64,000 nt of DNA from Macrostomum lignano (taxonomy: Eukaryota): assembly GCA_002269645.1 (NCBI GenBank), contig NIVC01000869.1, positions 1-64,000 on the forward strand, written 5' to 3'. The notes beneath the pieces are model-generated. The model saw only the letters and a list, made by a program, of their open reading frames with translations. It had not been told where the DNA came from and made no database searches. Below are positions 1,095-34,539 of this stretch, piece by piece. Both the position numbers and the translations under genes were made by a program. Every line of letters begins with the position of its first letter. Within the stretch, counting starts at the first letter, position 1.

Positions 1095-1958
1095 TGTAGA
1101 GTGTTCTACCTCCCGTTAAAAAAGGTAAAAAGAAGATAATCGTATAATGCTACTATAAGTAAGTAAGTACACGCATGTGCGCCTAAGCTTTGAATGAATC
1201 ACGCTACCAGAAAAAGATGTTACCAGAATAATACGCCATGAGCCATTTTCCCCTTTTAGCGCAACACGTGAATTGTCATGATACTATTTTGGATCAAAAA
1301 CTTGTCTATAAATACAAGCGATCTGAAGCGGTACCGGAGCCATTCTCCCCACGGAAGAGGAGCGCTCCGAAGAGGAAGCCTTAGGAGGACTTCCTGATCT
1401 ACCAAGTCAATCGAGACTCGGTCGAGTTGTTGCGGTAAGCCTTCCTTATTTGCGCCCGTTGTGTTAGAGACGTCTCGCTCAAGTCTATTGAGACTTGAGT
1501 CTAATTGAGTCTGTTGAGACTCTTGAGTCTGTTTAGACTCCATTGGTTGCAGTCTCCAGAAGGACTGCCCCTGATAGATCTTAGAGGACTATCAGTGGTT
1601 TCCGGAGCTATACCTAGAGTGCATAGAGGCACTGCTAGAAGAAGGAGGCTTAATTTAGACCGCAGTTTGGCGCAGGGTACCCATTGTTGCTACGAGGCCT
1701 CTGATTGGTCCTGACGGAAGATACCGGCCGGAAGAACTTATCGGAAGTACAAGAGGAACCAGGACCAGAGCAACTGAAGAATCAAGGCGCCTGATCTACG
1801 AGATCTACTGACAAGTTCCTAGCGAGAACTACTCAAGAAATTCAAATCCGGATTAAAGGTAATTGAATACCTTCGTTTGACTTACTGGGTTGCCTAGCTG
1901 TTGAGCTAGAAGTGATTGTTCCTTGATTATCGAAAGTCGGGTAATAAGGAACACATCA
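1095..1958 (+). repeat. 5' LTR (864 bp)
   Basis: Starts TGTAGAGTG and ends ACACATCA. Repeated at an offset of 9740; the only difference I noticed is A1416 vs G11156. Confidence 0.97.
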
Positions 1959-1960
1959 AT

Positions 1961-1978
1961 TGGTGATCTCGCCCTCTC
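1961..1978 (+). promoter_or_regulatory. Candidate primer-binding site (tRNA unassigned)
   Basis: TGGTGATCTCGCCCTCTC begins 2 nt after the LTR end; TGG is complementary to the tRNA CCA end. Confidence 0.6.
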
Positions 1979-2674
1979 GGCACTACTCAAACCTTGAGCA
2001 ATAGCCTGGCCAAGCTATTGTAAAGTGACGACAGAGCGACTTCATTAATTTTGCGCGCACGTGTTAGAGTTAACACTTTTTAAGTCCGTTACGTTTTGAA
2101 ACTCGAGTAAAATTTGGTGTACAGGTTTGAGCACCTGTCAAATTTGAGTACAGTTTGAGCACGCGTGTTAAAATTTTGTTTTGACGAGCTCGAGCAAGTG
2201 TGAGTTTAAAACAAAACCGAAATTAACTTCGTCGGTACACTGAAAACAAACCAAAAATAAAAAGAATCGTCGACGCAAAACAAACAAAAAATAACTGAAA
2301 CATTTTGCCGGCACAAAAACTAAAACAAAACCGAAATTAATTGAAACTTCGTGGAGAGCAGAGTTAATTGACAAAAGAGAGAGAGTCAAAGAAGAGAAGA
2401 AAGACTTTGCAAAGCAAGAAGACAAGTCCACTTCAACTTGAAGATACACTTTGCGGGACGCCGCATAAGTGCGAAATCAGCAAGCGAACAGAACAAGTTC
2501 ATTTGAGGACAACCAGTGGCAGCAAGCCACACCGCATCCGAGGCCAGCGAATAACAAATCGACACCACAAGGCAATTCGTTACAGTCGAGGTTTATTCCG
2601 AGGCAAACACCACACTGGACGATCCGTTACAAATCGATCCAGATCTTGAACTACCGTTCTACCCTATCAACAAC

Positions 2675-3850
2675 ATGGCGCGGCGCAATCCAACGGTACA
2701 CAGAGACATCAAAGAAACGGTCGGTACTTTCTCGATGGAGAAAGATTTTAACACATTTGTCGACCATTTTGACCTGGTATGTAGGGAATACAACCTACAA
2801 AATCCAGAGAAGGCACAGCTGCTGCCACCTCTTCTCCAAGGTACTGCGCGAGAAATTTACGGCAAGCTGGATGCGGCAACACAGCAAAATTATCCAGCAC
2901 TAATCATTCAACTGCGCGCGCATTTCAACCGTTGCGGCACAAACAGATCAGTGCTGCTGCACAAGTTGCATAACAGAAGGATGCAAGCAACAGAATCCTT
3001 CCTCGCCTTTGTGGACGATATCCGCCAGATAATTAAGGCACTGCATCAGCCACCGCTGCAAGCTGCGGACCAACCACCACTGGGAGCGGCAGAATTGGCC
3101 GCCAGAGAAAGACAACGATTGATGGATCGTGAACAAAACCTCATCCTGCACGTAATAAACAACGCACAGCCGTCACTTCGGGATAGACTTTTGCGTGAAA
3201 ATATCGAAACCGAAGAAGACCTTTTGCGTTGCGGAATGCAATGGGAAGCCAGTGCCCCATTAATGACGACAGGCAACAATGAAGTGCAGAAACTGACGCA
3301 GCAATTAAACAAGTTAATGCAGCACCAGACAGCTGCTATCGCCGAACAAAAAAGACGAAATGAACAAGCCTCAGCCAGATGTTACTACTGCGGACAAGAA
3401 GGACATTATCAGATTAATTGTCCTCATTGGTCAACAAGATACGACAAGCCGCGACAGATATTCAACAATCAGAAGCCGCAGAAACCATGGCAGCACTATC
3501 AAAATCGCCAACAACAAGGAATGAGACGCTTCGGAAATGATAGACGCTTCGGAAATAATGACCGCTCCGGAAATGATGGCCGCTTCGGAAACGAAGGCCG
3601 CTTCAGAAGTAATGGCTACAGGCCACGCAACGTCAGATACACACAAAGACAGCCGACGCAAGCAATGCCACGATACGCGAATGCCATCACGTACACACCG
3701 GAAAATGAACAGCAAGAACAGCAAGTGTTCACAATTGACGACTTGGAAATGGACTTCACAGTCCCGGAACTTGACATCAGCTTGATCGAAAAGAAGACGA
3801 CGCACGAGGACAACACTGACAACACGAAGAGACGAATGAAACCGAAATGA
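2675..3850 (+). CDS. gag: Gag (capsid, CCHC zinc knuckle, RFG-rich basic tail)
   Basis: 391-aa ORF with CYYCGQEGHYQINC (C-x2-C-x4-H-x4-C, 3380-3421) and a Gypsy-like capsid N-terminus. Confidence 0.9.
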   Translation: MARRNPTVHRDIKETVGTFSMEKDFNTFVDHFDLVCREYNLQNPEKAQLLPPLLQGTAREIYGKLDAATQQNYPALIIQLRAHFNRCGTNRSVLLHKLHNRRMQATESFLAFVDDIRQIIKALHQPPLQAADQPPLGAAELAARERQRLMDREQNLILHVINNAQPSLRDRLLRENIETEEDLLRCGMQWEASAPLMTTGNNEVQKLTQQLNKLMQHQTAAIAEQKRRNEQASARCYYCGQEGHYQINCPHWSTRYDKPRQIFNNQKPQKPWQHYQNRQQQGMRRFGNDRRFGNNDRSGNDGRFGNEGRFRSNGYRPRNVRYTQRQPTQAMPRYANAITYTPENEQQEQQVFTIDDLEMDFTVPELDISLIEKKTTHEDNTDNTKRRMKPK

Positions 3851-4548
3851 TCAAATTAAAAGAGACCACCGGAGACAGCAGAGAAAACAGGAAGAAAGTA
3901 AATCACAAGACAAGGGAGGAGGCGGAGAGCGACATCGGCAACGAAGAAAAGATGAAAACCGGCGAAGAAAACAACTATGAATCGACAACAGTGGATGACG
4001 ACAAAACGAGCATGAAAGACAAAGAAATGAAAGAAGAAGAAGAATGTAGAAGTTACGGCAACGACCACGACTGCGAGGTGCGTGATGACACGAACGACTA
4101 CCAAGCCGAAAGAGGAATGCAGGAAGAACCGAGAGCGGAGAATCTAAGTTCCGACAGCGATCAAGGCTACGAAATACAATGGAAAGATGAAGAAATGGAA
4201 AAAGAACAGGTGAAAGAAAAGCCGAGTTCCGACAGCGACGAATGCTACGAGATCCGATACAAACGAAATGGTGAAGCCTATATTCAAACGGTCGACTACA
4301 AGACAGAGAAAAGATACCAAACGCAATGGAGTGAAACAACGGAAACATCGGAAGAAGCCGCAGACGAAGATAATGAAATAACCAAAAAGCAAAGCGAATC
4401 AGAAGCCTTCCGCCTGGATCAGCCAATGGAACAACCGAAAGAATATGATGCGGACATGGAAGATAACGAATGGCGATCGCAGCCAATGCAGCAAGGACAA
4501 CGGCAAAATCCAAGAAGTGGAAAAACTGGCTATTCTGGATCATCGTGA
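3847..4548 (+). CDS. Acidic low-complexity spacer ORF between Gag and Env (probably part of the polyprotein)
   Basis: 233-aa E/D/K-rich ORF in the -1 frame from gag; its ATG overlaps the gag stop (ATGA, 3847-3850). Confidence 0.55.
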   Translation: MIKLKETTGDSRENRKKVNHKTREEAESDIGNEEKMKTGEENNYESTTVDDDKTSMKDKEMKEEEECRSYGNDHDCEVRDDTNDYQAERGMQEEPRAENLSSDSDQGYEIQWKDEEMEKEQVKEKPSSDSDECYEIRYKRNGEAYIQTVDYKTEKRYQTQWSETTETSEEAADEDNEITKKQSESEAFRLDQPMEQPKEYDADMEDNEWRSQPMQQGQRQNPRSGKTGYSGSS

Positions 4549-6380
4549 TACTACTGATAGCAGTAGTCGCCAAAGCAACGGCAACGGAAAAGCCAATGAT
4601 TTGTCCAACGGATGCGCATATCCAACCGATGATCTACAAGATACCAACCGACATCAAATGCAGTTACTTCAAGACAAACCAGACAAAACCAAAGAAGATT
4701 ACACTCGATCTCTACAAGGCTAACATCAAGAAGCATCGACAACACGGGATAGTATGCTTCAGAGACAAGCACCTGGTGGAAAAAGTTTGCGCGGACAATG
4801 GAACCGGATCCGATTTAAACAACATGAGCTACATGTGTCGCACGCGGAATGCCTACAATGGAATCAAACACTATTTTCAAAGGATGGTGAACTGGAACCA
4901 GATGAGAAGGTCGGCAACGCACAGCTGTTCAGAACAAAGAATTCAGCCAACGGTCGATATATTCACTTCTTCGGAAAATGGAAAGAATATATGGCACGCA
5001 ACAGCTACTTGATCAGAAATATTCCATTCTACTACAATCCGTACGAGAAAATGGAATCGTTACAGCTGCAACTAAGCGAATGTCGATACAGTGAAGGATG
5101 GTGTCCAACGCCGATTCTACGGAAGGAAGAACTACACAGTCTACCACTGAGTCCAACATATCATCAAGACTATCGATGGCAGATTGAGCACAGAGCACAA
5201 TCACACTATGAGGAACCGTACAAATCACGACAATATTTCTTCGCATGGAAAGTAGAGCCGGAAATTGACTGCAAGCTTCAAAAGTATCACAAAGTGGAAG
5301 GAGGACTACTGTCGAATACGTTTTTGGCAAAGCAGGAGACTTGGCCTTGACGTTTCAAAAGAAGCCGGTTGAACAGGAACTCAAATGCAAGGATACGGAC
5401 AAGACGCTATTCATCTCGGAGCAAGAAATACCAGTCTACGTGAAGGATGGTGACAAACAAACCTTCCTGGCAATCATAAACGGAACATATCAGCAACAAG
5501 AGAGACAACGACGCGACATAGAACGTCCACGATTGGTGTCAAACCGACTGCTGTCAGCAAAGATCACGGCGCTGGATCACAACCTGCATAACCAGCTTAA
5601 CCACTTACATCGGTCACTGGTTCAGCTGACTTGCAAAATGCACGCAATCAACTTGAACTACGCAAGACAGAACTACTATGTCAACCCTACGATGACATTT
5701 CGCAAGATCACGGAATGAGAGAAGTTCTAGCAATTCCGATATATGGCATCTCCTGATATACAAGTGCACGCCGATACAGCACTTCAACATCTTACCGTCG
5801 AACACTCCAACAACTTGCTACGACAAGCCGAGAATTGAAGCATTCTACGAAGGCAAAAGGATACAAGGATTCTTGGACACGGTACACAACATCATCGTTG
5901 GAACCGCAATACCAAGACCTTGCACCACTGCAGCAAACTACTATCAACTGGACGATGCACTACATGTCATTACAACGACAGGAACGACAGCAACATCACA
6001 GAACCGAGTGATTGTCGATGAAACGTACGACATGGAGGATTTGAAGATACGATTCAACAGAACGAAGTACACACCATTCGCCGATATCCAACTCGATGAG
6101 ATAACGCCAGGATGGACCATCAACGACTTCTTACAAGCGTTCATCACTCAACGAAAGATGATTCGTCAACTCTTCACACGAGAGAATAAGGAACAGGCAC
6201 AAGCAGTTTCCCGTCCTTGTGTCGATGGACAACGCCATCCAATCGTTTTGGACAAACAGCTTCTTGGAGCTGCTTAACGGAAGAGGCAGCCTATATCAAG
6301 GCTTCATCTTCTACAGCGCCTGCGTTGTTTGGATAGTCACGACGATCTTTATCATCTCGTCGATAGTACGATGCTTCAGC
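4470..6380 (+). pseudogene. env: Envelope/fusion glycoprotein-like gene, frameshifted in this sequence
   Basis: Hydrophobic signal/anchor WLFWIIVILLIAVVAKATA (4527-4586), Cys-rich ectodomain in consecutive overlapping ORFs, furin-type RQRR (5503-5514), N-glycosylation sequons (NQT, NGT), and second TM FIFYSACVVWIVTTIFIISSIV (6303-6368). Confidence 0.75.
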
Positions 6381-9300
6381 AACACTTGTCCCACAGCGAA
6401 ACGAACAGTGAACGCCATCATGCAGAAGATACCAAGGGAAGAAGACAACAACTTGGAATTGACAGAGGATGCACGTCAAGAAACTCAAGGACAGCCGACA
6501 CCATCAACGCGAATGTATCCATCGATTCCGACAACACCAACAGCACCGAGAATTCAGCCACCTACTTATCAGCCTGAACAACACGAGCCAAAATGGCCGG
6601 AAAACTACGTCTGCACGCTACACGCCGAGATTGGCAAAGCAATGGCTCAGGTCATTGTCAACAACTTGCCATGTCGAGCACTACTGGATTCAGGCAGCTC
6701 GATCACAGTCATCTCGCAACAATTATGCAACAAGCTACGACTCGCGGTACGACCAGCAGCAATCGCAGTTGCAGGAGCAGGAGGACATTCGCTCAACATC
6801 CTAGGAAAAGCAGATATTGACTTGAAAATTGCTAATAAACAGCTGACGGTCCCGACGTACATCATCGACAGACTACCAAACCAAGACGTCATCGTTGGAA
6901 TAGACACGTTCAAACAGCTTCGACTACCATTGACCTTCGACTTCAACAAGCAAACGTTTAGGATCGACGCGGTGGAGCAACCACTGATCAATCAGATTCG
7001 AGTACTACCGAAAGTAACTCTGCAGCAAGATGTCATCATCCAGCCTGAAAGCGCATGCTGGGTCAGAGCGAAAACGACCAGCGCGGCAGATGAAGCAATG
7101 ATATTTGATCCACACAGGAGAGTCACGGCAAAACATCAAATCATGATGCCTACGGCACTAGTGCTGGTTGCAAAGGATAAGCAACTGCCAGTACAAATCT
7201 TCAACCCGAACACAGAAACGGTTCATCTACGACAAGGAATGTGCATCGGTCATCTCAACACCCAAGCATCGGTTATGCTGATTGAACAAGCGACTCCACG
7301 ACTAACAGAGGAAGAATTTCAAAAGAAGATCAATTTGGATGACAGCCCGATTACGGAACAGCAAAAGAGGAAAGTTCGACAGCTGTTGTGGAAGTACAAC
7401 GAAGCCTTCTGCCATCATGATTACGACATCGGACGAGCCAAGGACATCAAACAGGAAATCAAACTTCTGCCGCACACGGAACCAATTCAGTGCAAGCCGT
7501 ACCCGATCGCCAAGCATCTGCAACAACACTTTGACGAAATCATCGATAAAATGCTAAAGCACGGCATCATCAGCAAAGCTATTTCGGCTTACTCCTCACC
7601 GTGCCTACTGGTACAGAAGAAGGAGACAAACGAAAGACGACTCGTATGCGACTTCAGACTGTTGAACAAGTACATACCGACGGATCAGCAAAGCCTACCG
7701 AAGATCTCCGAACTACTAGCAAAGCTCAACACGGCAAAATTGTTCACGGTGTTCGACCTACGTCATGGATTTTGGCAAATTGAAATCGAGAAAGAGTCAC
7801 GACAGTACACGGCTTTCAAAACCTACAATGGACAAGTATACGAGTACAATCGATCGCCGATGGGACTTAGCAACAGCCCAGCAACGATGAGTCGACTAAC
7901 AGCATACATGCTAGCAGGATGCACGAACCTGCTGCACTATGTCGACGACATTTTAGCCTACGGAGAGGATTTCGAGCGACTCTACGAAGCTACGGAGAAG
8001 GCCCTAGCGCTCATTCAACGCCAAGGTCTGAAGCTACAACCAACTAAATGCAAATTCTTCCGAGACAACGTGCGTTACCTGGGACATCAGGTGACAGCCA
8101 AAGGAATCTCACCGGACCCAGACAACGTGGAAAAGGTGAAGAAGTTTCCTACGCCAACCAGTATAACGAAGGTCCAATCATTCCTTGGACTTGCGCAATA
8201 CTTCAGGAAGTTCTTACCTAACTTCGCAAAGACAGCAAAGCCACTGTACGACCTGCTCAAGTTCGACAAATGGAAGCAAGACAACTGGACACAGAGACAA
8301 CAGGAAAGTTTCGACGAAATCAAACGACAGCTGACATCAGACGCACTGCTACAGCATCCGGACTTCGACAAGCCCTTCATCATCGAGACAGACGCCTCAG
8401 GAACGGGACTCGGAGCAGTCCTACTACAGGAAACCGAGGACAAGAAGGAACGACCTATTGCCTACGTCAGTCGAGCACTCAAACCAAATGAAACAAAGTG
8501 GTCAGCTACGGAACGAGAGCTACTAGGAGTCTTGTTCGCCCTGCGACAGTTTCATTACTACATCTATGGTTCTCCAATACAGACGATAGTACGCACGGAT
8601 CATGCACCATTGACCTACGTCGTAACTACAAAAGGACAGACCAACAACCGACTCATCAGGATGACACTCAAGATCCAGGATTACAACTACAAGCTCGTCT
8701 ACAAACCAGGAATTACCAACAAAGCCGCGGACGCCCTGTCAAGAGCCTATGAAGTCAACGCCATTCATCCAATCCCTAACATCAAGGAGCTGGTGGATGA
8801 AACCGAGCGCGACAACTTCTACCAAGCGGTTAAAGACGACGACAAGAACATCAAACTCAGTCCCATGGAACGAAAATTCCTACGCAAGCAACGACAACAC
8901 CTAACAATCAATAAGTCACGGCTCTACTGGATGAGCGACAATAAACCCAAGATCTACATACCATATTCGTTTCGGCAAGCAATTCTCAACGAGCTACACG
9001 ACAACCCACTCGCTGGACACCTGTCGGCAGCAAAGACCATCGCGAGAGTGGAACAATACTACTTTTGGCCAACTATGTACGGCGACATCAAGCAGTATTG
9101 CAACAACTGCCATTCATGTGCTGCATCAAAGACAGGACGACGACAGAAACCGCAGCTACAGTCCATTCCGAAGTCGACTACAATGGACTGTCTAAGCATC
9201 GACATCACCGGACCGCTACCACCGAGCTGTCTCCAGGGCATCGCCTACACCTACATTCTAACCGCCTTGGATATCTTCTCGAAGTTTGCTATCGCCATAC

Positions 9301-10151
9301 CGATACCGGACATCACAGCTCAGACAGTGGCAATGAGTTTCTTCAACGAAATCATTTGCAAGTACGGCACGCCGAAGAACCTCACATCGGACAACGGATC
9401 GCAGTTTACATCGCAACTGTTTCAGCAAGTCGTAAGGATTCTCAACATTACGCAGATCTACACATCGACCTACAATCCGAAGGCAAACATGGTTGAACGG
9501 TTTCACCGCAACCTGCACGAGATGATTACACATTTCGCGCACCAACAGCCGGAAGACTGGATCATCTACCTGCAATCTGTAACAATGGCCTACAACAGCG
9601 CTATTCATCGATCAACGGACAATACGCCATTCTTCCTAATGTTTGGACGAGACTTCCAACCGCCGAATCTGCTCGCACAGCAATTGCTACCATCGCAGTA
9701 CGTGGAAGTACCGACTTCCATTCAGAAATTCGTCACGCAACTACACCTCGCATGGAAGATCGCCAAGCACAACATTGACAACCAGGTGGCTCTGACCACC
9801 GGCAACGACGCGAGATCGACAACCCTGACGGCCGGCGACATCGTCTACCTACACTACCCGCCACAGCAGACGCATAAACATGCACAGAAGTACAAAGGAC
9901 CCTATCGAGTGGTCCAACTAACGTCACCAACAACGGCACGCCTGGCTAATGTACAAGATCCACATCAGCACCAGTTCTACGTACACATTCATCGACTAAA
10001 GAAGATCAACACTGACACAGCGACGTTTCTACCGACATTAGACAACGCTGATCGCACGCGTTCAACGAACCGCCACATCGCGACGAAGCACGAGGAGACT
10101 CAAACGACAGATGTGAGCCAGCCACATGGCTACAACCTACGACCACGCTAG
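6219..10151 (+). CDS. pol: Pol polyprotein (Env TM/tail-protease-RT-RNase H-integrase)
   Basis: Uninterrupted 1310-aa ORF: LLDSGS protease (Asp codon 6687), YVDD RT (7938-7949), ETDASGTGLGAVL RNase H, HHCC, DITGP/DNGSQF/ERFHR integrase and a GPY motif. Confidence 0.97.
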   Translation: MSMDNAIQSFWTNSFLELLNGRGSLYQGFIFYSACVVWIVTTIFIISSIVRCFSNTCPTAKRTVNAIMQKIPREEDNNLELTEDARQETQGQPTPSTRMYPSIPTTPTAPRIQPPTYQPEQHEPKWPENYVCTLHAEIGKAMAQVIVNNLPCRALLDSGSSITVISQQLCNKLRLAVRPAAIAVAGAGGHSLNILGKADIDLKIANKQLTVPTYIIDRLPNQDVIVGIDTFKQLRLPLTFDFNKQTFRIDAVEQPLINQIRVLPKVTLQQDVIIQPESACWVRAKTTSAADEAMIFDPHRRVTAKHQIMMPTALVLVAKDKQLPVQIFNPNTETVHLRQGMCIGHLNTQASVMLIEQATPRLTEEEFQKKINLDDSPITEQQKRKVRQLLWKYNEAFCHHDYDIGRAKDIKQEIKLLPHTEPIQCKPYPIAKHLQQHFDEIIDKMLKHGIISKAISAYSSPCLLVQKKETNERRLVCDFRLLNKYIPTDQQSLPKISELLAKLNTAKLFTVFDLRHGFWQIEIEKESRQYTAFKTYNGQVYEYNRSPMGLSNSPATMSRLTAYMLAGCTNLLHYVDDILAYGEDFERLYEATEKALALIQRQGLKLQPTKCKFFRDNVRYLGHQVTAKGISPDPDNVEKVKKFPTPTSITKVQSFLGLAQYFRKFLPNFAKTAKPLYDLLKFDKWKQDNWTQRQQESFDEIKRQLTSDALLQHPDFDKPFIIETDASGTGLGAVLLQETEDKKERPIAYVSRALKPNETKWSATERELLGVLFALRQFHYYIYGSPIQTIVRTDHAPLTYVVTTKGQTNNRLIRMTLKIQDYNYKLVYKPGITNKAADALSRAYEVNAIHPIPNIKELVDETERDNFYQAVKDDDKNIKLSPMERKFLRKQRQHLTINKSRLYWMSDNKPKIYIPYSFRQAILNELHDNPLAGHLSAAKTIARVEQYYFWPTMYGDIKQYCNNCHSCAASKTGRRQKPQLQSIPKSTTMDCLSIDITGPLPPSCLQGIAYTYILTALDIFSKFAIAIPIPDITAQTVAMSFFNEIICKYGTPKNLTSDNGSQFTSQLFQQVVRILNITQIYTSTYNPKANMVERFHRNLHEMITHFAHQQPEDWIIYLQSVTMAYNSAIHRSTDNTPFFLMFGRDFQPPNLLAQQLLPSQYVEVPTSIQKFVTQLHLAWKIAKHNIDNQVALTTGNDARSTTLTAGDIVYLHYPPQQTHKHAQKYKGPYRVVQLTSPTTARLANVQDPHQHQFYVHIHRLKKINTDTATFLPTLDNADRTRSTNRHIATKHEETQTTDVSQPHGYNLRPR

Positions 10152-10271
10152 AGTTTAGAGAACAACCCCGTGTAGTGACCGGGATAAAGAATAGCACTAC
10201 AGCTTCGCAAGCTTGTCGTAAAAGGCGACTAATCCGAGCGACACAAAGACAGCGACAAATTGACAACAATT

Positions 10272-10706
10272 ATGGGCAACGCACTGTCGAAACAGGCGCC
10301 CCAGCCTCAGCAGCTATATGACTGCCCGATATGTTTAACTGATGACTTGGCTGTCAAGCCACCGACTATTTGCATCAATGGACATAAAGTTTGCGGACAA
10401 TGTTTAAGTGATTCACACTATATTCAGCCCTGGCAGAGTTGTCCCCTCTGTAGAGAAAGTTTGCGACAATGCGCCTATTGTTATTCTTGGCGCACGTTTC
10501 AATATGGTAACCATCAACATTTTATTTGCATGCACTGTTTGAAGCAAACCGCTAGTAGGGGCGTTATAGGATGCCCCTTATGTAATAGTATGCCGCGAGA
10601 CTGCACGTTTCGAAAGTGGTGTCGTATCAAACCTGATGCCACCCGATGTCTACGCGATATTCGAGTTTTGACCGCAATATGTACTGAAAAGTTTTTAGAG
10701 TTTTGA
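10272..10706 (+). CDS. Accessory tandem RING-finger protein with N-myristoylation motif
   Basis: Starts MGNALSK. C-x2-C-x12-C-x3-H-x2-C-x2-C-x12-C-x2-C fits RING-HC; a second unit reads CAYC...HQH..CMHC...CPLC. Lies inside the element, between pol and the PPT. Confidence 0.75.
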   Translation: MGNALSKQAPQPQQLYDCPICLTDDLAVKPPTICINGHKVCGQCLSDSHYIQPWQSCPLCRESLRQCAYCYSWRTFQYGNHQHFICMHCLKQTASRGVIGCPLCNSMPRDCTFRKWCRIKPDATRCLRDIRVLTAICTEKFLEF

Positions 10707-10819
10707 CCAAACCCTCGCTTCTCTAGACGCGCACAAAATCAATTGTTTATTTCCTATATTAACTGATCACCACAGAATTTTATTATTTTATTGTTAAAAC
10801 TCGGGACGAGTTTTTTCGT

Positions 10820-10830
10820 AAAAAAGGGAG
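10820..10830 (+). promoter_or_regulatory. Polypurine tract
   Basis: AAAAAAGGGAG, 4 nt upstream of the 3' LTR TG. Confidence 0.75.
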
Positions 10831-10834
10831 ATTT

Positions 10835-11698
10835 TGTAGAGTGTTCTACCTCCCGTTAAAAAAGGTAAAAAGAAGATAATCGTATAATGCTACTATAAGT
10901 AAGTAAGTACACGCATGTGCGCCTAAGCTTTGAATGAATCACGCTACCAGAAAAAGATGTTACCAGAATAATACGCCATGAGCCATTTTCCCCTTTTAGC
11001 GCAACACGTGAATTGTCATGATACTATTTTGGATCAAAAACTTGTCTATAAATACAAGCGATCTGAAGCGGTACCGGAGCCATTCTCCCCACGGAAGAGG
11101 AGCGCTCCGAAGAGGAAGCCTTAGGAGGACTTCCTGATCTACCAAGTCAATCGAGGCTCGGTCGAGTTGTTGCGGTAAGCCTTCCTTATTTGCGCCCGTT
11201 GTGTTAGAGACGTCTCGCTCAAGTCTATTGAGACTTGAGTCTAATTGAGTCTGTTGAGACTCTTGAGTCTGTTTAGACTCCATTGGTTGCAGTCTCCAGA
11301 AGGACTGCCCCTGATAGATCTTAGAGGACTATCAGTGGTTTCCGGAGCTATACCTAGAGTGCATAGAGGCACTGCTAGAAGAAGGAGGCTTAATTTAGAC
11401 CGCAGTTTGGCGCAGGGTACCCATTGTTGCTACGAGGCCTCTGATTGGTCCTGACGGAAGATACCGGCCGGAAGAACTTATCGGAAGTACAAGAGGAACC
11501 AGGACCAGAGCAACTGAAGAATCAAGGCGCCTGATCTACGAGATCTACTGACAAGTTCCTAGCGAGAACTACTCAAGAAATTCAAATCCGGATTAAAGGT
11601 AATTGAATACCTTCGTTTGACTTACTGGGTTGCCTAGCTGTTGAGCTAGAAGTGATTGTTCCTTGATTATCGAAAGTCGGGTAATAAGGAACACATCA
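10835..11698 (+). repeat. 3' LTR (864 bp)
   Basis: Copy of 1095-1958, followed by the CCGG TSD. Confidence 0.97.
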
Positions 11699-11899
11699 CC
11701 GGCTTTTGGCTTCCGGTCAGAGTCCCTGAAAACTGATGAATCAGCTGTTGGTAGTTCATTGTATGAGCTTTTCCCGAATATAAACTGTGAGCAGATCAAG
11801 GCTGCTGCTCCGAGCAGTCGGTGAGTAGCCAAAGATGTCACGCAGTTGAAATCTAATGCCATGTAGAAAATTAGCTTTCTGAATTGGGAAGAAAATTGC

Positions 11900-12500
11900 T
11901 TTCTTAAACACTTTGCTCATGTAGCTGCCCCATTCGACATAGGATGACATGCTCACAGTTCGCAGCACGGAGTTCCAGTTGCATTTTGTTGACTCCACAA
12001 TGCTGCATTGCAAGTTGATCAGGTTGGTGGGCGGACAACCGATGCAGCAGCGTGACACTTGCCGTCCAGGTGGGATCTTTACGGACTGATTTCCGAATGC
12101 CAGCCACTGTAGAATTTTACGAGGTACTTGATGGAAGGAACAATTCTGCTCGAGCCGTGTTGTTGAGCACTACTGTTCTCAACTCTTGGATTTCAAACTT
12201 TATGCCAATATCTCTAGCGCTGCTCCGCCCCATTAAACCGGACTCATCAGCTTCCATTTCAGACTCCCTGTCGCTCATTGCATCGAAGAACAGTGACTCA
12301 GAGTTGGCCAGCAGCTCATTCATGCGCTCAACCAGTTCCTCCATTCTAGCAAAGCGTCCGGGTTGAAGAACCAGGGTCTCATGCTCTCTTCCATCTGAGA
12401 CAGTGAAGCAGTAAGGCTCGTCAACATTGAACCATGCAGCAGGCAGATGGATTTCAGCCAGACCTGCCTCATAGTCCACATTTCGATCCAAGTAAATAGG
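11900..12500 (-). pseudogene. Polinton minor capsid (penton)-like remnant
   Basis: YEAGLAEIHLPAAWFNV matches the (W/Y)EVGL.EI..P..W.N motif of Polinton penton proteins; the C-terminus is degenerate. Confidence 0.65.
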
Positions 12501-12676
12501 TGAAGGCAGGTAAAAATGAAAGTCACTAGGAGTACTGAAATAAAGTCAAGACAAAACTTTATTTTGGCTCAAAAGCACGAAAAACTTTACCGGCTAAAAA
12601 GCCTGCTTTATATTAAACTATTTGATATTGATCGGCATACTCACCGCACCCCCCAACCCGCGCTAGCAAGTACATG

Positions 12677-12808
<132 letters not shown>

Positions 12809-12934
12809 AAAACAACTCAACCTAGCCCCGCCCCCAGCGCGCACGCAGGCCAAGCTATCACAAGTACCTTCAGCATTTTCGCTACAAATGATGATGCTTC
12901 TCATAGTTGGGAATGGCTGCACAATGTCGGCATC

Positions 12935-14014
12935 TTACACTTTTCTCAAGTCCTTCTCATCCACCCAGACAGTGGACTTGTAGCCGGCCCACTTGACGAG
13001 ATATCGGATCTTACCCTTCCGTTTCTCAGTCTTTAGAACCTTCTCGATTACATACAGCCGCTGTGAGTCTGGAACAGCTTGCAGCTCATGCTCGTGGAAG
13101 AGGCCTTGAATGTCTTCTCCCTTCATATCTCGAATCCTGTACATGTAGGGATAATGCTTTGGTGCCCTAGACACTATGGTGTACACCTCTTCGCTCCAGT
13201 TCGCCTCATATCCCTTCCTGAAAAGTCTAGGTGCATTGGAAATACGCACTGATTAGCTTTCACAGAACTTCGGGTTTCTCAGTTTCTCAACTGTCTCAAT
13301 CGCTTTCCCATCTTAAAGGTTCATCCACACTTCAGTCTCGTTTGCTTTGCTGACATTCATTGGTGCAGTCTTGATGCTTCTGTGGAAAGTATTGTTATAG
13401 GACTTGACCAGTTTAGGCAGCACATCAAGCCATTGCAGAGTGCTGTTGTAAGTAAAGTAACGCCACATCTTGCTTTTTAAAGTTCGATTCCATCTTTCTA
13501 TAATGGCTGCTTTGTGCTCACTGCTAGTTGGAAACGCCAGAATCTCCCGGTCTATGCAGAACTGGCGAAAAATTGCGTTGACAAACTCCTTTCCCTGATC
13601 TGTGCGGACAGTGCGCGGCTGCCGCTTTGAGCTCTTCAGCATGCTCTCAAACGCAGATTTCACTTCTGCTGCGCTTTTAGACTTCAGTGCTCGGGCCATT
13701 GCAAATTTAGATAAAACATCAATGCAGGTGAGAATTTATTTATGCCTGCGATTATACTTTGCAAATGGAATCATTTCCACCAGATCCATCTCCCACTGAT
13801 CATCAATGGCCCTCACTATTATTGGCGCCCTTGGAAATCGTACTCTAGCTGGCTTATGCAGAGTGTGTACTGACTGCTGACTTAGCCACTGCTCAATGCT
13901 CTTGACTCCGATATGATGACCTCTTTTTCGCAGTTCATATCGCAGCTTTAAAGAACTACAATAGCTTGCTCGTTGATTTGGGTTGAAATAATTTTTTTCC
14001 ATTTTCAGAAACAA
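12935..14014 (-). pseudogene. Polinton/Maverick retroviral-like integrase with C-terminal chromodomain
   Basis: DQWEMDLVEM, RTDQGKEF, IIERWNRTLK, FRKGYEANWSEE and YVIEKVLK...YLVKWAGY. Broken into three ORFs by stops or frameshifts. Confidence 0.85.
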
Positions 14015-28560: not shown

Positions 28561-29715
28561 GTCACAATGGAATTCGACTCCAGTGCCAGCGACCGATCGA
28601 CTGACTACCGTTGTTTAGGATTTATCTGTCTCATTGTTTCTATTCTCCCGTTAAACGCGTATATATCATACACCCCATGATTATTTTGAACCAATGCAGT
28701 TCCACAGGATCAGATAAACAGTTTTACTCATTCGCTGAAAGTAATAAAATCTTCTAGTTAAAGTTAAAAAACGATTAATCCTCCCGAACCCAAAGAACCC
28801 AAAAAAATTGCTGTCTATTTTAGTACTCTAAATTTAAATTCTGTAAGCAAGGAAGAAGCCCAAGCGTGCCGTCAAACACAGGCGAATCTAACACTGGAAC
28901 GATTTTAGAACGTGATGTAACCGCCCTTGACGTCCGTCCGCTCCACTCGGAGGCGAACGTATGACCATAGGGGGCAATGACCGTAGGCTGCCGATGACCG
29001 GGCAATGACCTGACGGACCTCCAGCACCAGACAGTCCCGCCCACATGATTTATAGCTTTGGTGACCAGAGGGCCAAGGACCCACATGGACCCACCTGTAG
29101 CCAAGGTGCAATAGTTGGTCACTCGGTCATAGCATGACCGAGTGGCCGCCACCACTCCATGTGACCTGGCGCACCTGGATCTTACTACCAGACCTCTCGA
29201 GGCTAGAGCCCCGCCTGGATTGGTTACTAGGGGATTTAGGCTAACAGGGGAGACGCATGCAGCCGATCGAGTACAGGGACTCTGCTTGGAGCATGATCGG
29301 GAACTCTGGGCTCAATCTGGAGGATTTCTCAGCAGGGGATCCTTTGTGGCTGTGAACGAGGCGGACTTACGGTTTCAATTACTAAGAGTAGTGTGAGGCG
29401 AACATGTACTAGCTATAGTTTAGATTGCTCAGGGCGAAGGGACGCGTAAGCATGGGGTTGCAACCTTCCTACTGCCATTCTGTGCCAAGACCCGCTACTT
29501 CCCTCTACTACACGCACACGCGGACCCGCAGCATGCACACACAGGCGGGATTTGTACGGGGAGAGGCCACTAGCTTACCCAAATGCTTTTCCACCCAGGG
29601 GGGTGCTTTACGAACCAAAGTTCAATCTTAAGATCAAACTTAGGATTGAGTTTAGGATCGACGTGTTCTATGAAGATAAAAGTCGATCTTAGCTGGGATC
29701 CAACTTAGGTCTAAC

Positions 29716-31111
29716 CAAAGAGTATTGAGGTCGCCTAGTATAGAGTGCCAATAAGGATGAAAATCTGAAGCCGATTTTTAGAATCCACCCACCCCCTCCG
29801 GTCACCAAGCTGTTTAGTCTATGGCACAAGTTGTGGCTAGAATGGTGTACAAAGCCGATGCTCAGAAATATACATAGAGTGCATGAGAAAAATACAAGTA
29901 GCTAATGTAGCTGGACGAATACCATGTATGCTTAAAACATCCTCAAGACTTTATTTCTGTATCTATACTGTAACCGTACGTACGATGATTGCATTGTGTA
30001 AGGAGAAAAGATGTTGAGCAGGATTCTTGCAGCAGAGTCAGAAAGACAAAAGCATAAGTAATAAACAGGCAGAGTAAAGGTGCAGCAGTGGGAAAAGCAA
30101 AAAACAAAAGTAATAAACCTGCAGAGCGAAAGAAAACAGTACTATGAGCAAATAAGCAGGAAGTAATGTAGCAAACATGTCAAGTAAGAGAGGAGATGAG
30201 TCATAGCCTCGATCGCCAGAAGAATATCAAAAAATTCATGAAGATTATTGTTCTGTGCAACCGATTCCGCACAGATAGACCATGAAGCTTGTCGCGACTG
30301 GCCTTTTCGATGTGTTTAGAACGCAGGAGGAAAACGAATTCGGCAAAGAAGGAAATTAGCTGCGGTCCGTGGTTGTTGCTTAAACTGTTGCAGGTCAGTG
30401 AGTCAATGAGTTGCAAGTCCATTGCTCGCCACTCTCTCAGACGATCGACTTCCTTGAAAGGCAGACGAAAGAAGGATACAGATGCATCAGAAACGCAGTT
30501 ATTGCAATTAGCTACCGCGCACTTTAGTGGCATGGCTGTTGTTGTTCAGACGTAAGGGCTATATGGCATGGCTGTTACGGAGTTGTGTATCGACGACGGC
30601 AACTGAGTCTGGTGACTGAGCGATGTTGTCTTGCTTATTTGATACATGTGGCGGCCAGACTGTACGCGACCGGCAGCACCAGTGCAGCCGCACTGGAAAC
30701 CCCCCAACCTCTGCCTAGCTGAGGTGGGGTGGTTGCGCACCGCGCTAGCCGGCTCGCTAAGCCAGGGGGTTGGCGTAGCCAATCACGCCACGCCACCTGT
30801 TTCGCACCTCCCTTGCCTTGGCCCCTCAATCTGGCGTTGTTTGTAAATATATAAATACCCGCGCAAAGCAGCACAAACTCTTTGCTGCCATTCCATCTAT
30901 TGAAACAAAAAGGCCTTCCGCCTCATACATGCATTTTCTAAGTGTGAAATGTCTTATATTTCTGAGCATCGGCTTTGTACACCATTCTAGCCACAACTTG
31001 TGCCATAGACTAAAAAGCTTGGTGACCGGAGGGGGTGGGTGGATTCTAAAAATCGGCTTCCGATTTTCATCCTTATTGGCACTCTATACTAGGCGACCTC
31101 AATACTCTTTG
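29716..31111. mobile_element. Non-autonomous P-superfamily element with THAP remnant
   Basis: Long TIRs (about 160 bp, starting CAAAGAGTATTGAGGTCGCC) and an 8-bp TSD GGTCTAAC/GGTCTGAC (7 of 8 match). Confidence 0.8.
30201..30533 (-). pseudogene. Truncated THAP-domain ORF
   Basis: MPLKCAVANC...SFFRLP.....LREW matches the first half of a THAP domain; the distal C/H ligands are absent. Confidence 0.65.
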
Positions 31112-31540
31112 GGTCTGACCTAAGGGAAGATAAGATCGAACTTACGACTGGTGCGTTTTATCAAGAGAGACTGTCTATGACCAAAACTTTCATGGTCAAT
31201 CTTAACTTTAGGACACATCTAGAGTTGTCCTAAGTTTCAAGTCGCTATCTGAACAGCAAGAGCCGATCTTTTGGAATAAAATGCTTGCCGTTTTAATTGC
31301 TCGTCGTGCGACCGAGAGGCAAAGGATTCCTCGGGTTTCTTTCAGTCAAAACAGTCAATATATGCAATGCATCGGTTTGCGCGAGCCCGCGAGGGCTAAC
31401 CGCTGTTAGTGCAAGGGGGGCTGTTTGGGTGCTGGCTGTCTGGTGGGGTGGTGGGTGCGTTGGTGCGTGCGCGTGCCTTTTTAGGCCGCCACCTTTGTGG
31501 CTGCGCGGGGTTGCTCGCGGTTGAATTTTTTTGCTGAATC

Positions 31541-32632
31541 ATGGCAGATAGCCTTGTACTGCCCGCAACTAACAAAGCGCTACGAGAAGCCCTTAGTGAG
31601 CGCGGCCTGCCTACTAATGGCAATAAGCAAGAGCTAACAAGTCGTCTAAAACTCAGCATTGCCAAGGAGCTTGAGCGGCAGGCGTTGGAGCAGGACAGAA
31701 GCTCATCTCGTCGTGCTCAAGATGACAAGACATCACCGACGAATGCGGGCGCACCCGAGCTAAGTCTGGCTCCACCTGAGGACGAGATGCTTCCGGCGGT
31801 GGGCGCCTCGGCCGAGGGTCGGGCGGCGACGGGAGGCGGTCTCGAGGATCAGCTGCGAGAGGCTGAACTGCGCATTCGGCTGCTGGACCTGAAAAAAAGA
31901 GAGGCTCAGCTCGAAGCCGAGCTCGCTGAAGCGCGTCACAGTGGCACGGCAGCTGCGAGAGAACGTGATCAGACTCCCGGTGAGTGGCATGATTTGGTTG
32001 GCGAGTGTATACTCGGGCAGGCTGGGGCTGCAACTTCGCATGCTCAGGCGCCGGCGGTGTACAGAGTCGTTGATTTTATCAGTGAGCGTAAGCGGAGACA
32101 AGGAAGCCAGTCTGTTGTGGGAGCGGCAAAGCCAGAGAGGTTGAGACACGTCAGTCCCGAGTCACTGTCGTTTGGCGATTTCATCTCCGGTAGCTGTAAC
32201 TTACTGGTGCAAATGCTGCGTGATGGCAAACTGCTGCGCATTGTTGATGGCAGAATCGATTCATCCGAGTTGATCGATCATCTCCGACATAACGCTAGAA
32301 TTGGTGACCTGCTAGATTTAGGCTTCGATCGCACTAAAGTCATGAGATATGATGACGAATGTCGGCTTCTCCAGCATGATGGAACGCGGTGGAGCGCTGT
32401 TAGCGCAGACCTGGGTCTGGTGGCAACACACTTGATGGCACCAACAAAAATGATAAATGCAACAGCGCCTAAAAAGCGAACGCAGCCACCTGTCTGTTTC
32501 GACTTCAACAGTCTTAGCGGCTGCAACAGAACTCACTGCCGCTTCGCCCATCAGTGCCGCAGGTGCTCACAGCCGCACTCTGAAGCCCGAGCCCACGCTG
32601 ATGGGGACCCGGGCCAATTTTCAAAAAACTAG
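31541..32632 (+). CDS. Ngaro ORF1 (gag-like) with SAP domain and CCCH-like finger
   Basis: LREALSERGLPTNGNKQELTSRL is SAP-like; CFDFNSLSGCNRTHCRFAHQCRRCSQPH is a C-terminal zinc finger. Confidence 0.8.
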   Translation: MADSLVLPATNKALREALSERGLPTNGNKQELTSRLKLSIAKELERQALEQDRSSSRRAQDDKTSPTNAGAPELSLAPPEDEMLPAVGASAEGRAATGGGLEDQLREAELRIRLLDLKKREAQLEAELAEARHSGTAAARERDQTPGEWHDLVGECILGQAGAATSHAQAPAVYRVVDFISERKRRQGSQSVVGAAKPERLRHVSPESLSFGDFISGSCNLLVQMLRDGKLLRIVDGRIDSSELIDHLRHNARIGDLLDLGFDRTKVMRYDDECRLLQHDGTRWSAVSADLGLVATHLMAPTKMINATAPKKRTQPPVCFDFNSLSGCNRTHCRFAHQCRRCSQPHSEARAHADGDPGQFSKN

Positions 32633-32640
32633 CGTGCGAG

Positions 32641-34539
32641 GTGGGGGCACAGGACTCAATGTCTGCCGTCGGGTCGCCCTCCTGTGCCCCCACGGGGGAG
32701 CTCCCCCTATGTGACCCGAGTTCAACTGAGTTGTCGAGCGACCTTGTGTTTGCGGTTTGGCGGGAAGAGCTGGCTGGGACCGAGATGCCGGAGGACCGTG
32801 TCAGGTTCGTGCTCGATGGTGTGAAGAATGGCTTTCGAATTACTAATAAAGTGATGGATTGTAAGAACCACACTGAGATGGCAAATCACAGATCAGCTAC
32901 CATTCACCAGCAAGCTGTTGAGGCCCAGGTGCGCCAGGAGCTCAAGCAGGACCGCTACAGGCGCTGCCAGGCAGGCAATCGGCCGCTCATCGTTAGTGCA
33001 CTTGGTGCGATCCCTAAGGCGGATTCGTCTTCCATCCGCCTTATTCACGACTGCAGCCTGCCAACTGGCGCCTCTGTGAATGATTTCTTTGAGTCGAAAC
33101 GGAAGTTGCGTTTTACTTCGGCCAGCAACTTTGCCTCGAAGCTGTACAGCGGCGCGTACATGTGCAAAGTGGATCTGTCGCAAGCATATCGTTCATGTGG
33201 TGTGCACCCTGATGACCACCGGGTCACAGGCATGAAGATTCAGCTCCAAGGCGAGGGCCAGCCAGTGTACCTGTACGACACGCGGCTCCCGTTTGGTGCT
33301 TCGGCTTCCGTCTTCTGCTTTTACGAGCTGAGCCAAGCTGTGCGTTTTATGATGTTGAAGCATGGTTTCTACGCTATGGAGGCCTACATGGATGACTTCG
33401 CCTTTTGTGGAGATCTGGAGTCCTGCTGGAAGTTCTACAACCATCTCATCGATCTGCTCGAGCGGCTAGGCTTCACCGTTAACCGTAGCAAGTGTGTTCC
33501 GCCGACAACGCGGATGACCTTTCTGGGCATTTTATTTGATAGCGTGGCAGGCCAGATGTCTCTTTCTGCCGAAAAAGTCCAAGACTTGTTGCATGTTTTA
33601 TCTCTCTGCTCTTCGAAGAAAAGGCTGTCAAAGTCGTGTTTGCAGAAGTTGATCGGCAAGTTAAACTGGGCGTCGCAAATTGTTCGGCACGGGAGAGTTT
33701 TCCTCCGACCTCTTATCGACATTGTTAACAAGCTGCATCGGCCTCATGACAGGGTTCTTGTTAGTCCCTCCATGGTGCACCACCTCTCCTGGTGGCGGTT
33801 GGCTTTGCAGCATCGCATCGGTGTTGGCCTGTGGACTTCGCCGAGGGCTTGTGTTGCCATAGAGACTGACTCGTCGTCTTCAGGCGCCGCGGCGGTGCTC
33901 CGTGACGGTGATGGGATTCGTGATTGGTGCTTTATTGACTGGCAGATCGACGCAAATGGTGTTTTTCAGAATTACTGCATCAATTACAAGGAGGCTGTGG
34001 TTATATTGCTGGCTGTTTTGAGATGGGGCCAATCCTTGGCTGGTTGTCGGCTTGCTGTGTACTGCGACAATGAGACGGCGTGTTGGATTCTAAGGCGAGG
34101 TGTCTCCAAGGACTCGCGTCTGATGTGGTTGCTGCAGTCTTTGGCGTTGCTCTGTCTGCGTTTTGACGTTGATTTTGAGGTCTTTCACGTTCCTGGTGCT
34201 TATCAGCTGTTTGCTGATGCAGGGTCCCGCCTGCACTCGCGTCATGAGTTGCTTAATTTTATTTTCCGTGTTTACGGGTCTGTACCAGTTTGCCCTGTGG
34301 AGTTTTCGGATCACGCGTTTTCTGTTTTTGCCTCCCGTTTTTTATTTTCACAGGCCGCCTCCCTGCAACGCCGACCCTCGGCGCCGCCGCCTCCAGCCTC
34401 CTCGCCGCAGCATACGCACCGCAGTCACGCAGGGCGATCTCATCGGCCGTCCGGTCCTGGCACAGCTTCTGCAACGAGAACGGGACCAACCCGGCTCGAT
34501 CCGACCGGTCGGTGCTACTCAACTACCTGGCTCACCTAG
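32641..34539 (+). CDS. Ngaro ORF2 reverse transcriptase/RNase H
   Basis: KVDLSQAYR, RLPFGAS, YMDDF, IETDSS and YCDNETA motifs in a 632-aa open frame, -1 relative to ORF1. Confidence 0.93.
   Translation: MGAQDSMSAVGSPSCAPTGELPLCDPSSTELSSDLVFAVWREELAGTEMPEDRVRFVLDGVKNGFRITNKVMDCKNHTEMANHRSATIHQQAVEAQVRQELKQDRYRRCQAGNRPLIVSALGAIPKADSSSIRLIHDCSLPTGASVNDFFESKRKLRFTSASNFASKLYSGAYMCKVDLSQAYRSCGVHPDDHRVTGMKIQLQGEGQPVYLYDTRLPFGASASVFCFYELSQAVRFMMLKHGFYAMEAYMDDFAFCGDLESCWKFYNHLIDLLERLGFTVNRSKCVPPTTRMTFLGILFDSVAGQMSLSAEKVQDLLHVLSLCSSKKRLSKSCLQKLIGKLNWASQIVRHGRVFLRPLIDIVNKLHRPHDRVLVSPSMVHHLSWWRLALQHRIGVGLWTSPRACVAIETDSSSSGAAAVLRDGDGIRDWCFIDWQIDANGVFQNYCINYKEAVVILLAVLRWGQSLAGCRLAVYCDNETACWILRRGVSKDSRLMWLLQSLALLCLRFDVDFEVFHVPGAYQLFADAGSRLHSRHELLNFIFRVYGSVPVCPVEFSDHAFSVFASRFLFSQAASLQRRPSAPPPPASSPQHTHRSHAGRSHRPSGPGTASATRTGPTRLDPTGRCYSTTWLT

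Follow-up and report, generated by a model that had tools for sequence, protein, structure and literature searches.

Organization of the element

The window, meaning the whole 64,000-nucleotide stretch of Macrostomum lignano DNA analyzed herein, carries at 1095-11698 a Ty3/gypsy LTR retrotransposon (Metaviridae), in which LTRs, a primer-binding site, a polypurine tract, and a target-site duplication are all present and the Pol domains follow the order protease, reverse transcriptase (RT), RNase H, integrase. Env sits between Gag and Pol, as in the GAG-ENV-POL layout, and the parts are as follows.

1091-1094 and 11699-11702: target-site duplication CCGG, ahead of the 5′ LTR and after the 3′ LTR (direct reading)
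1095..1958, + strand: 5′ LTR, 864 bp, TG...CA; 863/864 bases equal to the 3′ LTR
1961..1972, + strand: primer-binding site; 12-mer and offset are those listed for Mlig_errantivirus_2 (PMC13524379 supplement)
2675..3850, + strand: Gag, with capsid and a CCHC zinc knuckle at 3380-3421 (zf-CCHC E 2e-4)
3820..4526, + strand: acidic, predicted cytosolic linker from Gag to TM1 (open reading frames)
4527..4571, + strand: TM1, putative internal signal sequence for Env (sister copy, hydropathy 2.4)
4572..6302, + strand: predicted gB-like class III Env ectodomain (sister-copy structure model, Foldseek)
5503-5514, + strand: furin-type site RQRR in the Env ectodomain (sequence)
6303..6356, + strand: TM2, putative Env membrane anchor (hydrophobic helix)
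6357..6596, + strand: predicted cytosolic Env tail of some 80 residues, up to a conserved Trp-Pro (KWP, 6591-6599)
6597..10151, + strand: Pol, with protease, RT, RNase H, and integrase; the Env tail is in the same frame (open frame, Pfam)
6681-6698, + strand: protease motif LLDSGS (sequence)
7938-7952, + strand: RT motif YVDDI (sequence)
10233..10706, + strand: additional ORF bearing two weak RING-like Cys clusters (below Pfam cut-offs)
10820..10831, + strand: polypurine tract (sequence)
10835..11698, + strand: 3′ LTR (LTR comparison)

The two LTRs are mismatched at one base over 864 bp, and the insertion is therefore very young. Env in the window copy is broken across frames (4467-5012, 4724-5350, 5269-5718, 5696-6277, and 6162 onward), and the acidic linker lies in a frame that differs from that of Gag, whereas the two frames are identical in open copies. 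Contigs from four public sequencing runs cover the element and, within the broken region, show small indels relative to the window copy, so these breaks are copy-specific or assembly errors. Unbroken copies exist: of 141 Env matches, 9 are at least 90% identical to the family's Env and lie in open frames; these frames, of 2,461-2,538 codons, run from Gag to integrase and encode a single polyprotein of Gag, linker, TM1, Env, TM2, tail, protease, RT, and integrase. No GT-AG joint that skips env was found among the joints listed in the contigs of the four runs, which as contigs cannot prove absence.

Gag begins with MARR, without a Met-Gly myristoylation start, and no Met-Gly occurs among its first five Met residues in the six lineages inspected. 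Past the zinc knuckle, at 3500-3610, it carries short RRFGND/GRFGNE repeats that vary in number between copies. The ORF at 10233-10706, between pol and the 3′ LTR, is retained in sister copies and in a lineage with 63% identity, in which a paralogous ORF comes after it; the window ORF may encode an accessory ubiquitin ligase. Elsewhere in the window, fragments with an integrase-like core and a chromodomain-like end, recognized by eye directly after the 3′ LTR (12117-13735, − strand), resemble a second mobile element, and a Gag-like ORF pair (31538-34536, + strand, by eye), a THAP-like ORF (53374-54450, + strand, by eye), and a 158-bp inverted repeat pair (29715-31112) are probably further transposons.

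For a sister copy, the modeled Env ectodomain (pLDDT 64, nine rows in the alignment) matched herpesvirus gB in Foldseek at E 2e-19; the top matches were all herpesvirus gB, at low TM-scores of 0.2-0.3, and Atlas look-alikes of Env belonged to Monjiviricetes fusion, rhabdovirus G, and gB clusters. On this model, the ectodomain is predicted to have a class III gB-like fold. Pfam recognized no Env family in the Env pieces, a PDB sequence search with one Env piece gave nothing relevant, and the sole match in a word-based homolog search was one chimeric gene model that lacks the tail motifs described below, an absence that may be an artefact of the model. In three lineages of this genome (L078, L080, and L084), a Thr-rich, mucin-like insertion of 200-300 residues, reminiscent of a glycan shield, lies near the furin site of the gB-type ectodomain.

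GAG-ENV-POL elements with gB-type Env have been catalogued in nematodes, bryozoans, and flatworms by Chary and Hayashi (eLife 2026, PMC13524379), who cite Sacco et al. 2022. With the errantiviruses bearing an HSV/gB-type Env in that catalogue (PMC13524379), the window element shares gene order, a gB-type Env, a Ty3/gypsy Pol, and many near-identical copies, and its LTR length and primer-binding site are the same as those of Platyhelminthes_Rhabditophora_Mlig_errantivirus_2. The Env analysis reported there concerns the ectodomain, and the terms “late domain,” “ESCRT,” “cytoplasmic,” and “budding” are all absent from the main text of PMC13524379.

The motif cluster and its conservation in this genome

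The Env tail contains three motifs in close succession.

6513..6527, + strand: MYPSI, ALIX-type PhiYPx[LI] motif (translation, copy comparison, lineage comparison)
6537..6548, + strand: PTAP, TSG101-type motif (translation, copy comparison, lineage comparison)
6558..6569, + strand: PPTY, NEDD4/WW-type PPxY motif (translation, copy comparison)

A preliminary description of this DNA had placed YPSI, PTAP, and PPTY together in a short stretch of the tail about 50 residues past TM2, and both statements are borne out: the translation of 6516-6569 (+ strand), in the open frame 6162-10151, is YPSIPTTPTAPRIQPPTY, and about 50 residues separate it from the hydrophobic helix at 6303-6356. The catalytic Asp of the protease lies 43-58 residues downstream. 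P(T/S)AP binds TSG101, PPxY binds NEDD4-family WW ligases, and YPx(n)L-type motifs bind ALIX. The cluster matches all three patterns, with an ALIX-type motif that ends in Ile. The earlier YPx(n)L-type label needs a correction in that YPSI departs from strict YPxL and fits YPx[L/I], the form reported for PalA/ALIX (PMC4832277). The commonest variant in the family, LYPSI, is one residue away from the LYPSL late domain of Rous sarcoma virus (RSV). None of 200,000 shuffles of the family's 79-residue tail contained all three motifs and, judged from its sequence, the cluster is not a product of chance.

Within the family, 70 candidate copies were identified, 40 were scored, and the best 30 were fetched. 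Among these best 30 of 70, [LM]YPSI is present in 30/30, PTAP in 29/30 (with one PPAP), and PPxY in 30/30, with four residues (T, N, G, and I) at the x of PPxY and only silent changes at its other three positions. Substitutions were counted in 34 in-register copies, comprising 18 distinct DNA variants, out of 45 read, the other 11 having a tail indel or stop. The ten motif-defining residues showed 1 amino-acid change versus 6 silent ones, and the 55 tail positions outside the cluster showed 40 versus 39, a contrast that is not significant (Fisher P 0.07) and no more than suggestive.

An Env query recovered further lineages of this genome at about 63%, 30%, and 24% identity to the window family. 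From the 20 loci fetched, one row per lineage gave nine rows, window family included; the remaining loci were sister copies, one without a readable protease frame. Across the nine, Env is 24-63% identical to that of the window family, and the tails, of 67-103 residues, are 19-55% mutually identical. Conservation of the motifs relative to the surrounding linker, the check put forward in the preliminary description, was found for two of the three: P[TS]AP occurs in 7/9 lineage tails (PPAP stands in one more), where shuffles predict 0.29, and PhiYPx[LI] in 6/9 versus 0.06; PPxY occurs in 1/9, the window family only, versus 0.52. Outside the tails, 17,564 residues contain P[TS]AP once, PhiYPx[LI] never, and PPxY four times. 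The YP motif precedes PTAP in the window family and follows it in the other lineages, one sister copy in the next lineage has PNAP instead of PTAP, and the tail of lineage G is without any motif. Because the lineages are related, these counts are not independent draws, and the shuffle P-values overstate the case.

Two further observations concern regions outside the tail. In lineages without a tail PPxY, a PPxY (or a second PSAP) occurs in the cytosolic linker before TM1, the sites being L074 residue 590, L077 residue 121, L084 residues 501-524, and L080 residue 573. L088 has an acidic region ahead of the capsid, an RGG-rich segment, and a short tail without a late motif, and the CCHC knuckle is absent from the frame read.

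Recurrence in distant relatives

A profile search returned 497 proteins, of which the best 150 were examined and tails could be delimited in 84; excluded were 53 in which no second helix was found, 7 with no protease or too short a tail, and 6 with no match to the C-terminal half of Env. Removal of 2 proteins belonging to this genome's families left 82 tails, scored with patterns fixed beforehand against shuffles that preserve tail composition. In this sample, drawn from the best 150 of 497 proteins, 23/82 tails carry a late-domain motif versus 2.83 expected. Each type contributes, with P[TS]AP in 10 tails (0.72 expected), PhiYPx[LI] in 8 (0.56 expected), and PPxY in 11 (1.66 expected), such that PPxY too recurs in distant relatives. 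Examples include LYPDL, LYPKL, IYPSL, and an overlapping PTAPPTY, and among the 48 protease-fused tails, 14 have a motif versus 1.73 expected. The remaining 59/82 tails have none.

The distribution on a quick Env tree (90 rows, 30 motif-bearing) requires 18 changes of the motif label, 13 of which well-supported branches make unavoidable. Motif-bearing rows tend to group together on the tree (18 changes versus a shuffled mean of 25.5), and sister branches carry different motif types. When 80 tails, a set from which four more close relatives had been removed, were grouped at 35% identity, 16/43 clusters contained a motif versus 2.6 expected; single linkage at 30% gave 2/10 clusters versus 1.05 (P 0.11), a setting at which clusters chain together and power is lost. 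Taken as sequence patterns, late-domain motifs thus appear to recur beyond chance in relatives of the element, though patchily.

An alternative to be weighed here is that the tyrosine motif is an AP-2-type YxxPhi endocytosis signal, such as occurs in herpesvirus gB tails, and that PTAP and PPxY are proline-rich by-products or sites for other proline readers. YPSI does fit YxxPhi, which is found in 9/9 lineage tails of this genome versus 3.15 expected, and Pro and Thr abound in the tails. However, the generic YxxPhi pattern is not enriched among the 82 distant tails (40 versus 35.4 expected, P 0.15), where the narrower PhiYPx[LI] is, and the excess of P[TS]AP stands against shuffles that keep composition and against anagrams found at most twice each, except for [TS]APP (7), which overlaps P[TS]AP. 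We therefore consider an AP-2 signal with proline-rich by-products improbable.

Other parts of the polyprotein served as controls. Capsid regions are not enriched (2/50 versus 1.56 expected), and the linker between zinc knuckle and TM1 shows a weak excess (5/50 versus 1.67), mostly of PPxY, whose carriers include two lineages of this genome without a tail PPxY. A general late domain in Gag was considered and rejected, the Gag-side linker showing only that weak excess. The lumenal ectodomain, intended as a negative control, contained P[TS]AP in 9/102 cases versus 1.29 expected; 8 of the 9 are one inherited site, and therefore descent inflates such counts. The site, conserved in one group of relatives (P0058, P0075, P0085, P0089, P0097, P0104, P0121, and P0126), reads [WF]P[ST]AP, lies about 116 residues into Env, and, being lumenal, is probably structural. 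In Env-less Ty3/gypsy elements, P[TS]AP and PhiYPx[LI] are absent from 10 pre-protease stretches of this genome, while PPxY occurs as PPQY in 3/8 Gag frames, before the protease in 1/10, and as PPPY in the Gag frames of L097 and L098; Env-less status here means no Env match in the stretches fetched, and the controls span few families.

The false enrichment produced by the inherited lumenal site, together with the majority of distant tails being motif-free, lends some substance to a further alternative, namely that the tail motifs arose by chance in a fast-evolving linker and persist through common descent alone. Against this, the motifs persist and swap order although the tails barely align, they are spread over many separate branches and over more than a third of the 35% clusters, and the triple was never recovered by shuffling. 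Chance with descent is, in our estimation, very improbable, and both it and the AP-2 signal fit the data worse than the readings in which the motifs act as late domains or as sorting signals.

Topology, host partners, and possible function

The two hydrophobic helices and the in-frame Pol suggest that the tail is exposed to the cytosol. In the topology we infer, Gag would be cytosolic and tied to the membrane through its C-terminal TM1, Env would be lumenal, and the tail and Pol would again be cytosolic. The preliminary description had assigned the motifs to an “Env tail/Pol leader,” and the first of these terms is the better supported. Specifically, a Trp-Pro lies 22-55 residues upstream of the catalytic Asp in 20/57 protease-fused proteins and 30-37 residues upstream in all eight motif-bearing lineages of this genome, where every motif precedes it; “Pol leader” was accordingly set aside. 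Retroviral proteases often release their N-terminus at an aromatic-Pro bond, and the conserved Trp-Pro is likely the protease N-terminus here. Given this common mode of cleavage and their position upstream of Trp-Pro, the motifs probably remain attached to Env once maturation is complete.

The host genome encodes candidate partners for all three motifs, with a TSG101 UEV domain at three loci (E 8e-45 to human UEV), ALIX V domains, and many WW domains, the last counted as domains and not as parts of NEDD4-type ligases. The host UEV retains Thr58, Tyr68, Asn69, Met95, Pro139, Val141, and Ser143 of human TSG101, while Tyr63 is replaced by His and Phe142 by Val; all of these residues, including the two that differ, presumably have a role in the PTAP groove of TSG101. 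Complex prediction for the host UEV with a 42-residue piece of the tail gave a median of 0.33, against a mark of 0.34, and controls gave 0.00; this result is given no weight here.

We favor, with a probability of roughly 0.6, the interpretation that the cluster represents functional, ESCRT-recruiting late domains on a cytosolic Env tail that serve to release enveloped particles. The polyprotein, whose Gag has no matrix-like N-terminus, would assemble on the membrane via its two anchors, and the in-frame fusion implies one tail per Gag. At the bud neck, the tail would recruit TSG101/ESCRT-I through PTAP, ALIX through PhiYPx[LI], and a NEDD4-type ligase through PPxY, with ESCRT-III scission to follow; the protease would then cut the Trp-Pro bond, freeing Pol and leaving the motifs on Env. 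The tail late domains would thus stand in for those that retroviruses carry in Gag. Among lineages, the three motif types appear to come, go, and change order in the manner of interchangeable late domains, which are reported to be position-independent and exchangeable (PMC2958808).

Because these motifs act in endosomal sorting as well, the “real extracellular infectivity” read from them in the preliminary description goes too far, while its suggestion of budding from membranes is a reasonable inference. The motifs could bind ESCRT adaptors in the service of trafficking and not of virion scission. Delivery of Env or the polyprotein to multivesicular bodies could then permit transfer in the manner of exosomes, dispose of a fusogen that would be dangerous on the cell surface, or support a step of retrotransposition inside the cell. 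Such trafficking accounts for the conservation and enrichment data just as well, and the tail of a membrane protein is the usual place of cargo-sorting signals. Further, ALIX is reported to sort membrane proteins via YPXnL motifs (PMC3341166), and a role of ESCRT in LINE retrotransposition that does not involve budding has been reported (PMC5478143). Nevertheless, what recurs is precisely the set of three classical viral late domains, which lie close together and replace one another between sister lineages; Env-less relatives have no PTAP or LYPxL before the protease; and budding at endosomes would itself be late-domain action. Trafficking without scission is on this balance rather unlikely, if still a serious alternative to particle release.

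More broadly, and tentatively, with odds that we place somewhat below even, the gag-env-pol errantiviruses of flatworms and other invertebrates may be true ESCRT-budding viruses, infectious from cell to cell, that use a budding strategy undescribed for retroelements. Their polyprotein would cross the membrane twice and tether Gag, which has no matrix domain, by its C-terminus, and the Env tail would be both matrix surrogate and carrier of late domains, repeatedly gaining PTAP, LYPxL, and PPxY. If true, a tractable flatworm would harbor ESCRT-budding infectious viruses. According to PMC13524379, it is unclear whether Env-carrying Ty3/gypsy elements outside insects form infectious particles. Alongside the fusogen, and independently of it, the late domains would be a second sequence-based argument for budding at membranes, and they point to candidate host proteins; with the motifs on the Env tail, budding would become explicable for a Gag that has no membrane-binding N-terminus and is fused in frame to Env and Pol.

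Comparison with known systems

While the element family and the motifs are already known, we found, in the titles and abstract openings among the top results listed, no paper that describes late domains on the tail of an LTR-retrotransposon Env. HIV p6 adjoins the protease, as does the window cluster. Reported late domains include PTAP and LYPXnL in HIV p6, YPDL in EIAV p9, PPPY and LYPSL in RSV, and the overlapping PTAP/PPxY of Ebola VP40 (PMC8402826). These retroviral and negative-strand examples belong to the three motif classes seen in the window element and likewise crowd into a short disordered stretch; in contrast, they are reported in Gag, matrix, or nucleoprotein, whereas here the motifs lie on the tail of a putative fusion glycoprotein, two membrane crossings from Gag. 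Closer in placement are the hartmanivirus GP2 tail and the hantavirus Gn tail, through which matrix-less viruses have been proposed to reach ESCRT (PMC6261641), although the motif there is a predicted ALG-2 site, offered by the authors as speculation, whereas the window tail has three canonical motifs. Oropouche glycoproteins are reported to recruit ESCRT without identifiable late domains (PMC9888203), and here the motifs are present. The window element would exemplify all three canonical late domains on one fusion glycoprotein. Bluetongue virus NS3 and hepatitis E virus ORF3 also bear late domains on a membrane-bound protein and not on the capsid; unlike the window Env, they are separate egress proteins of non-enveloped viruses and not fusogens.
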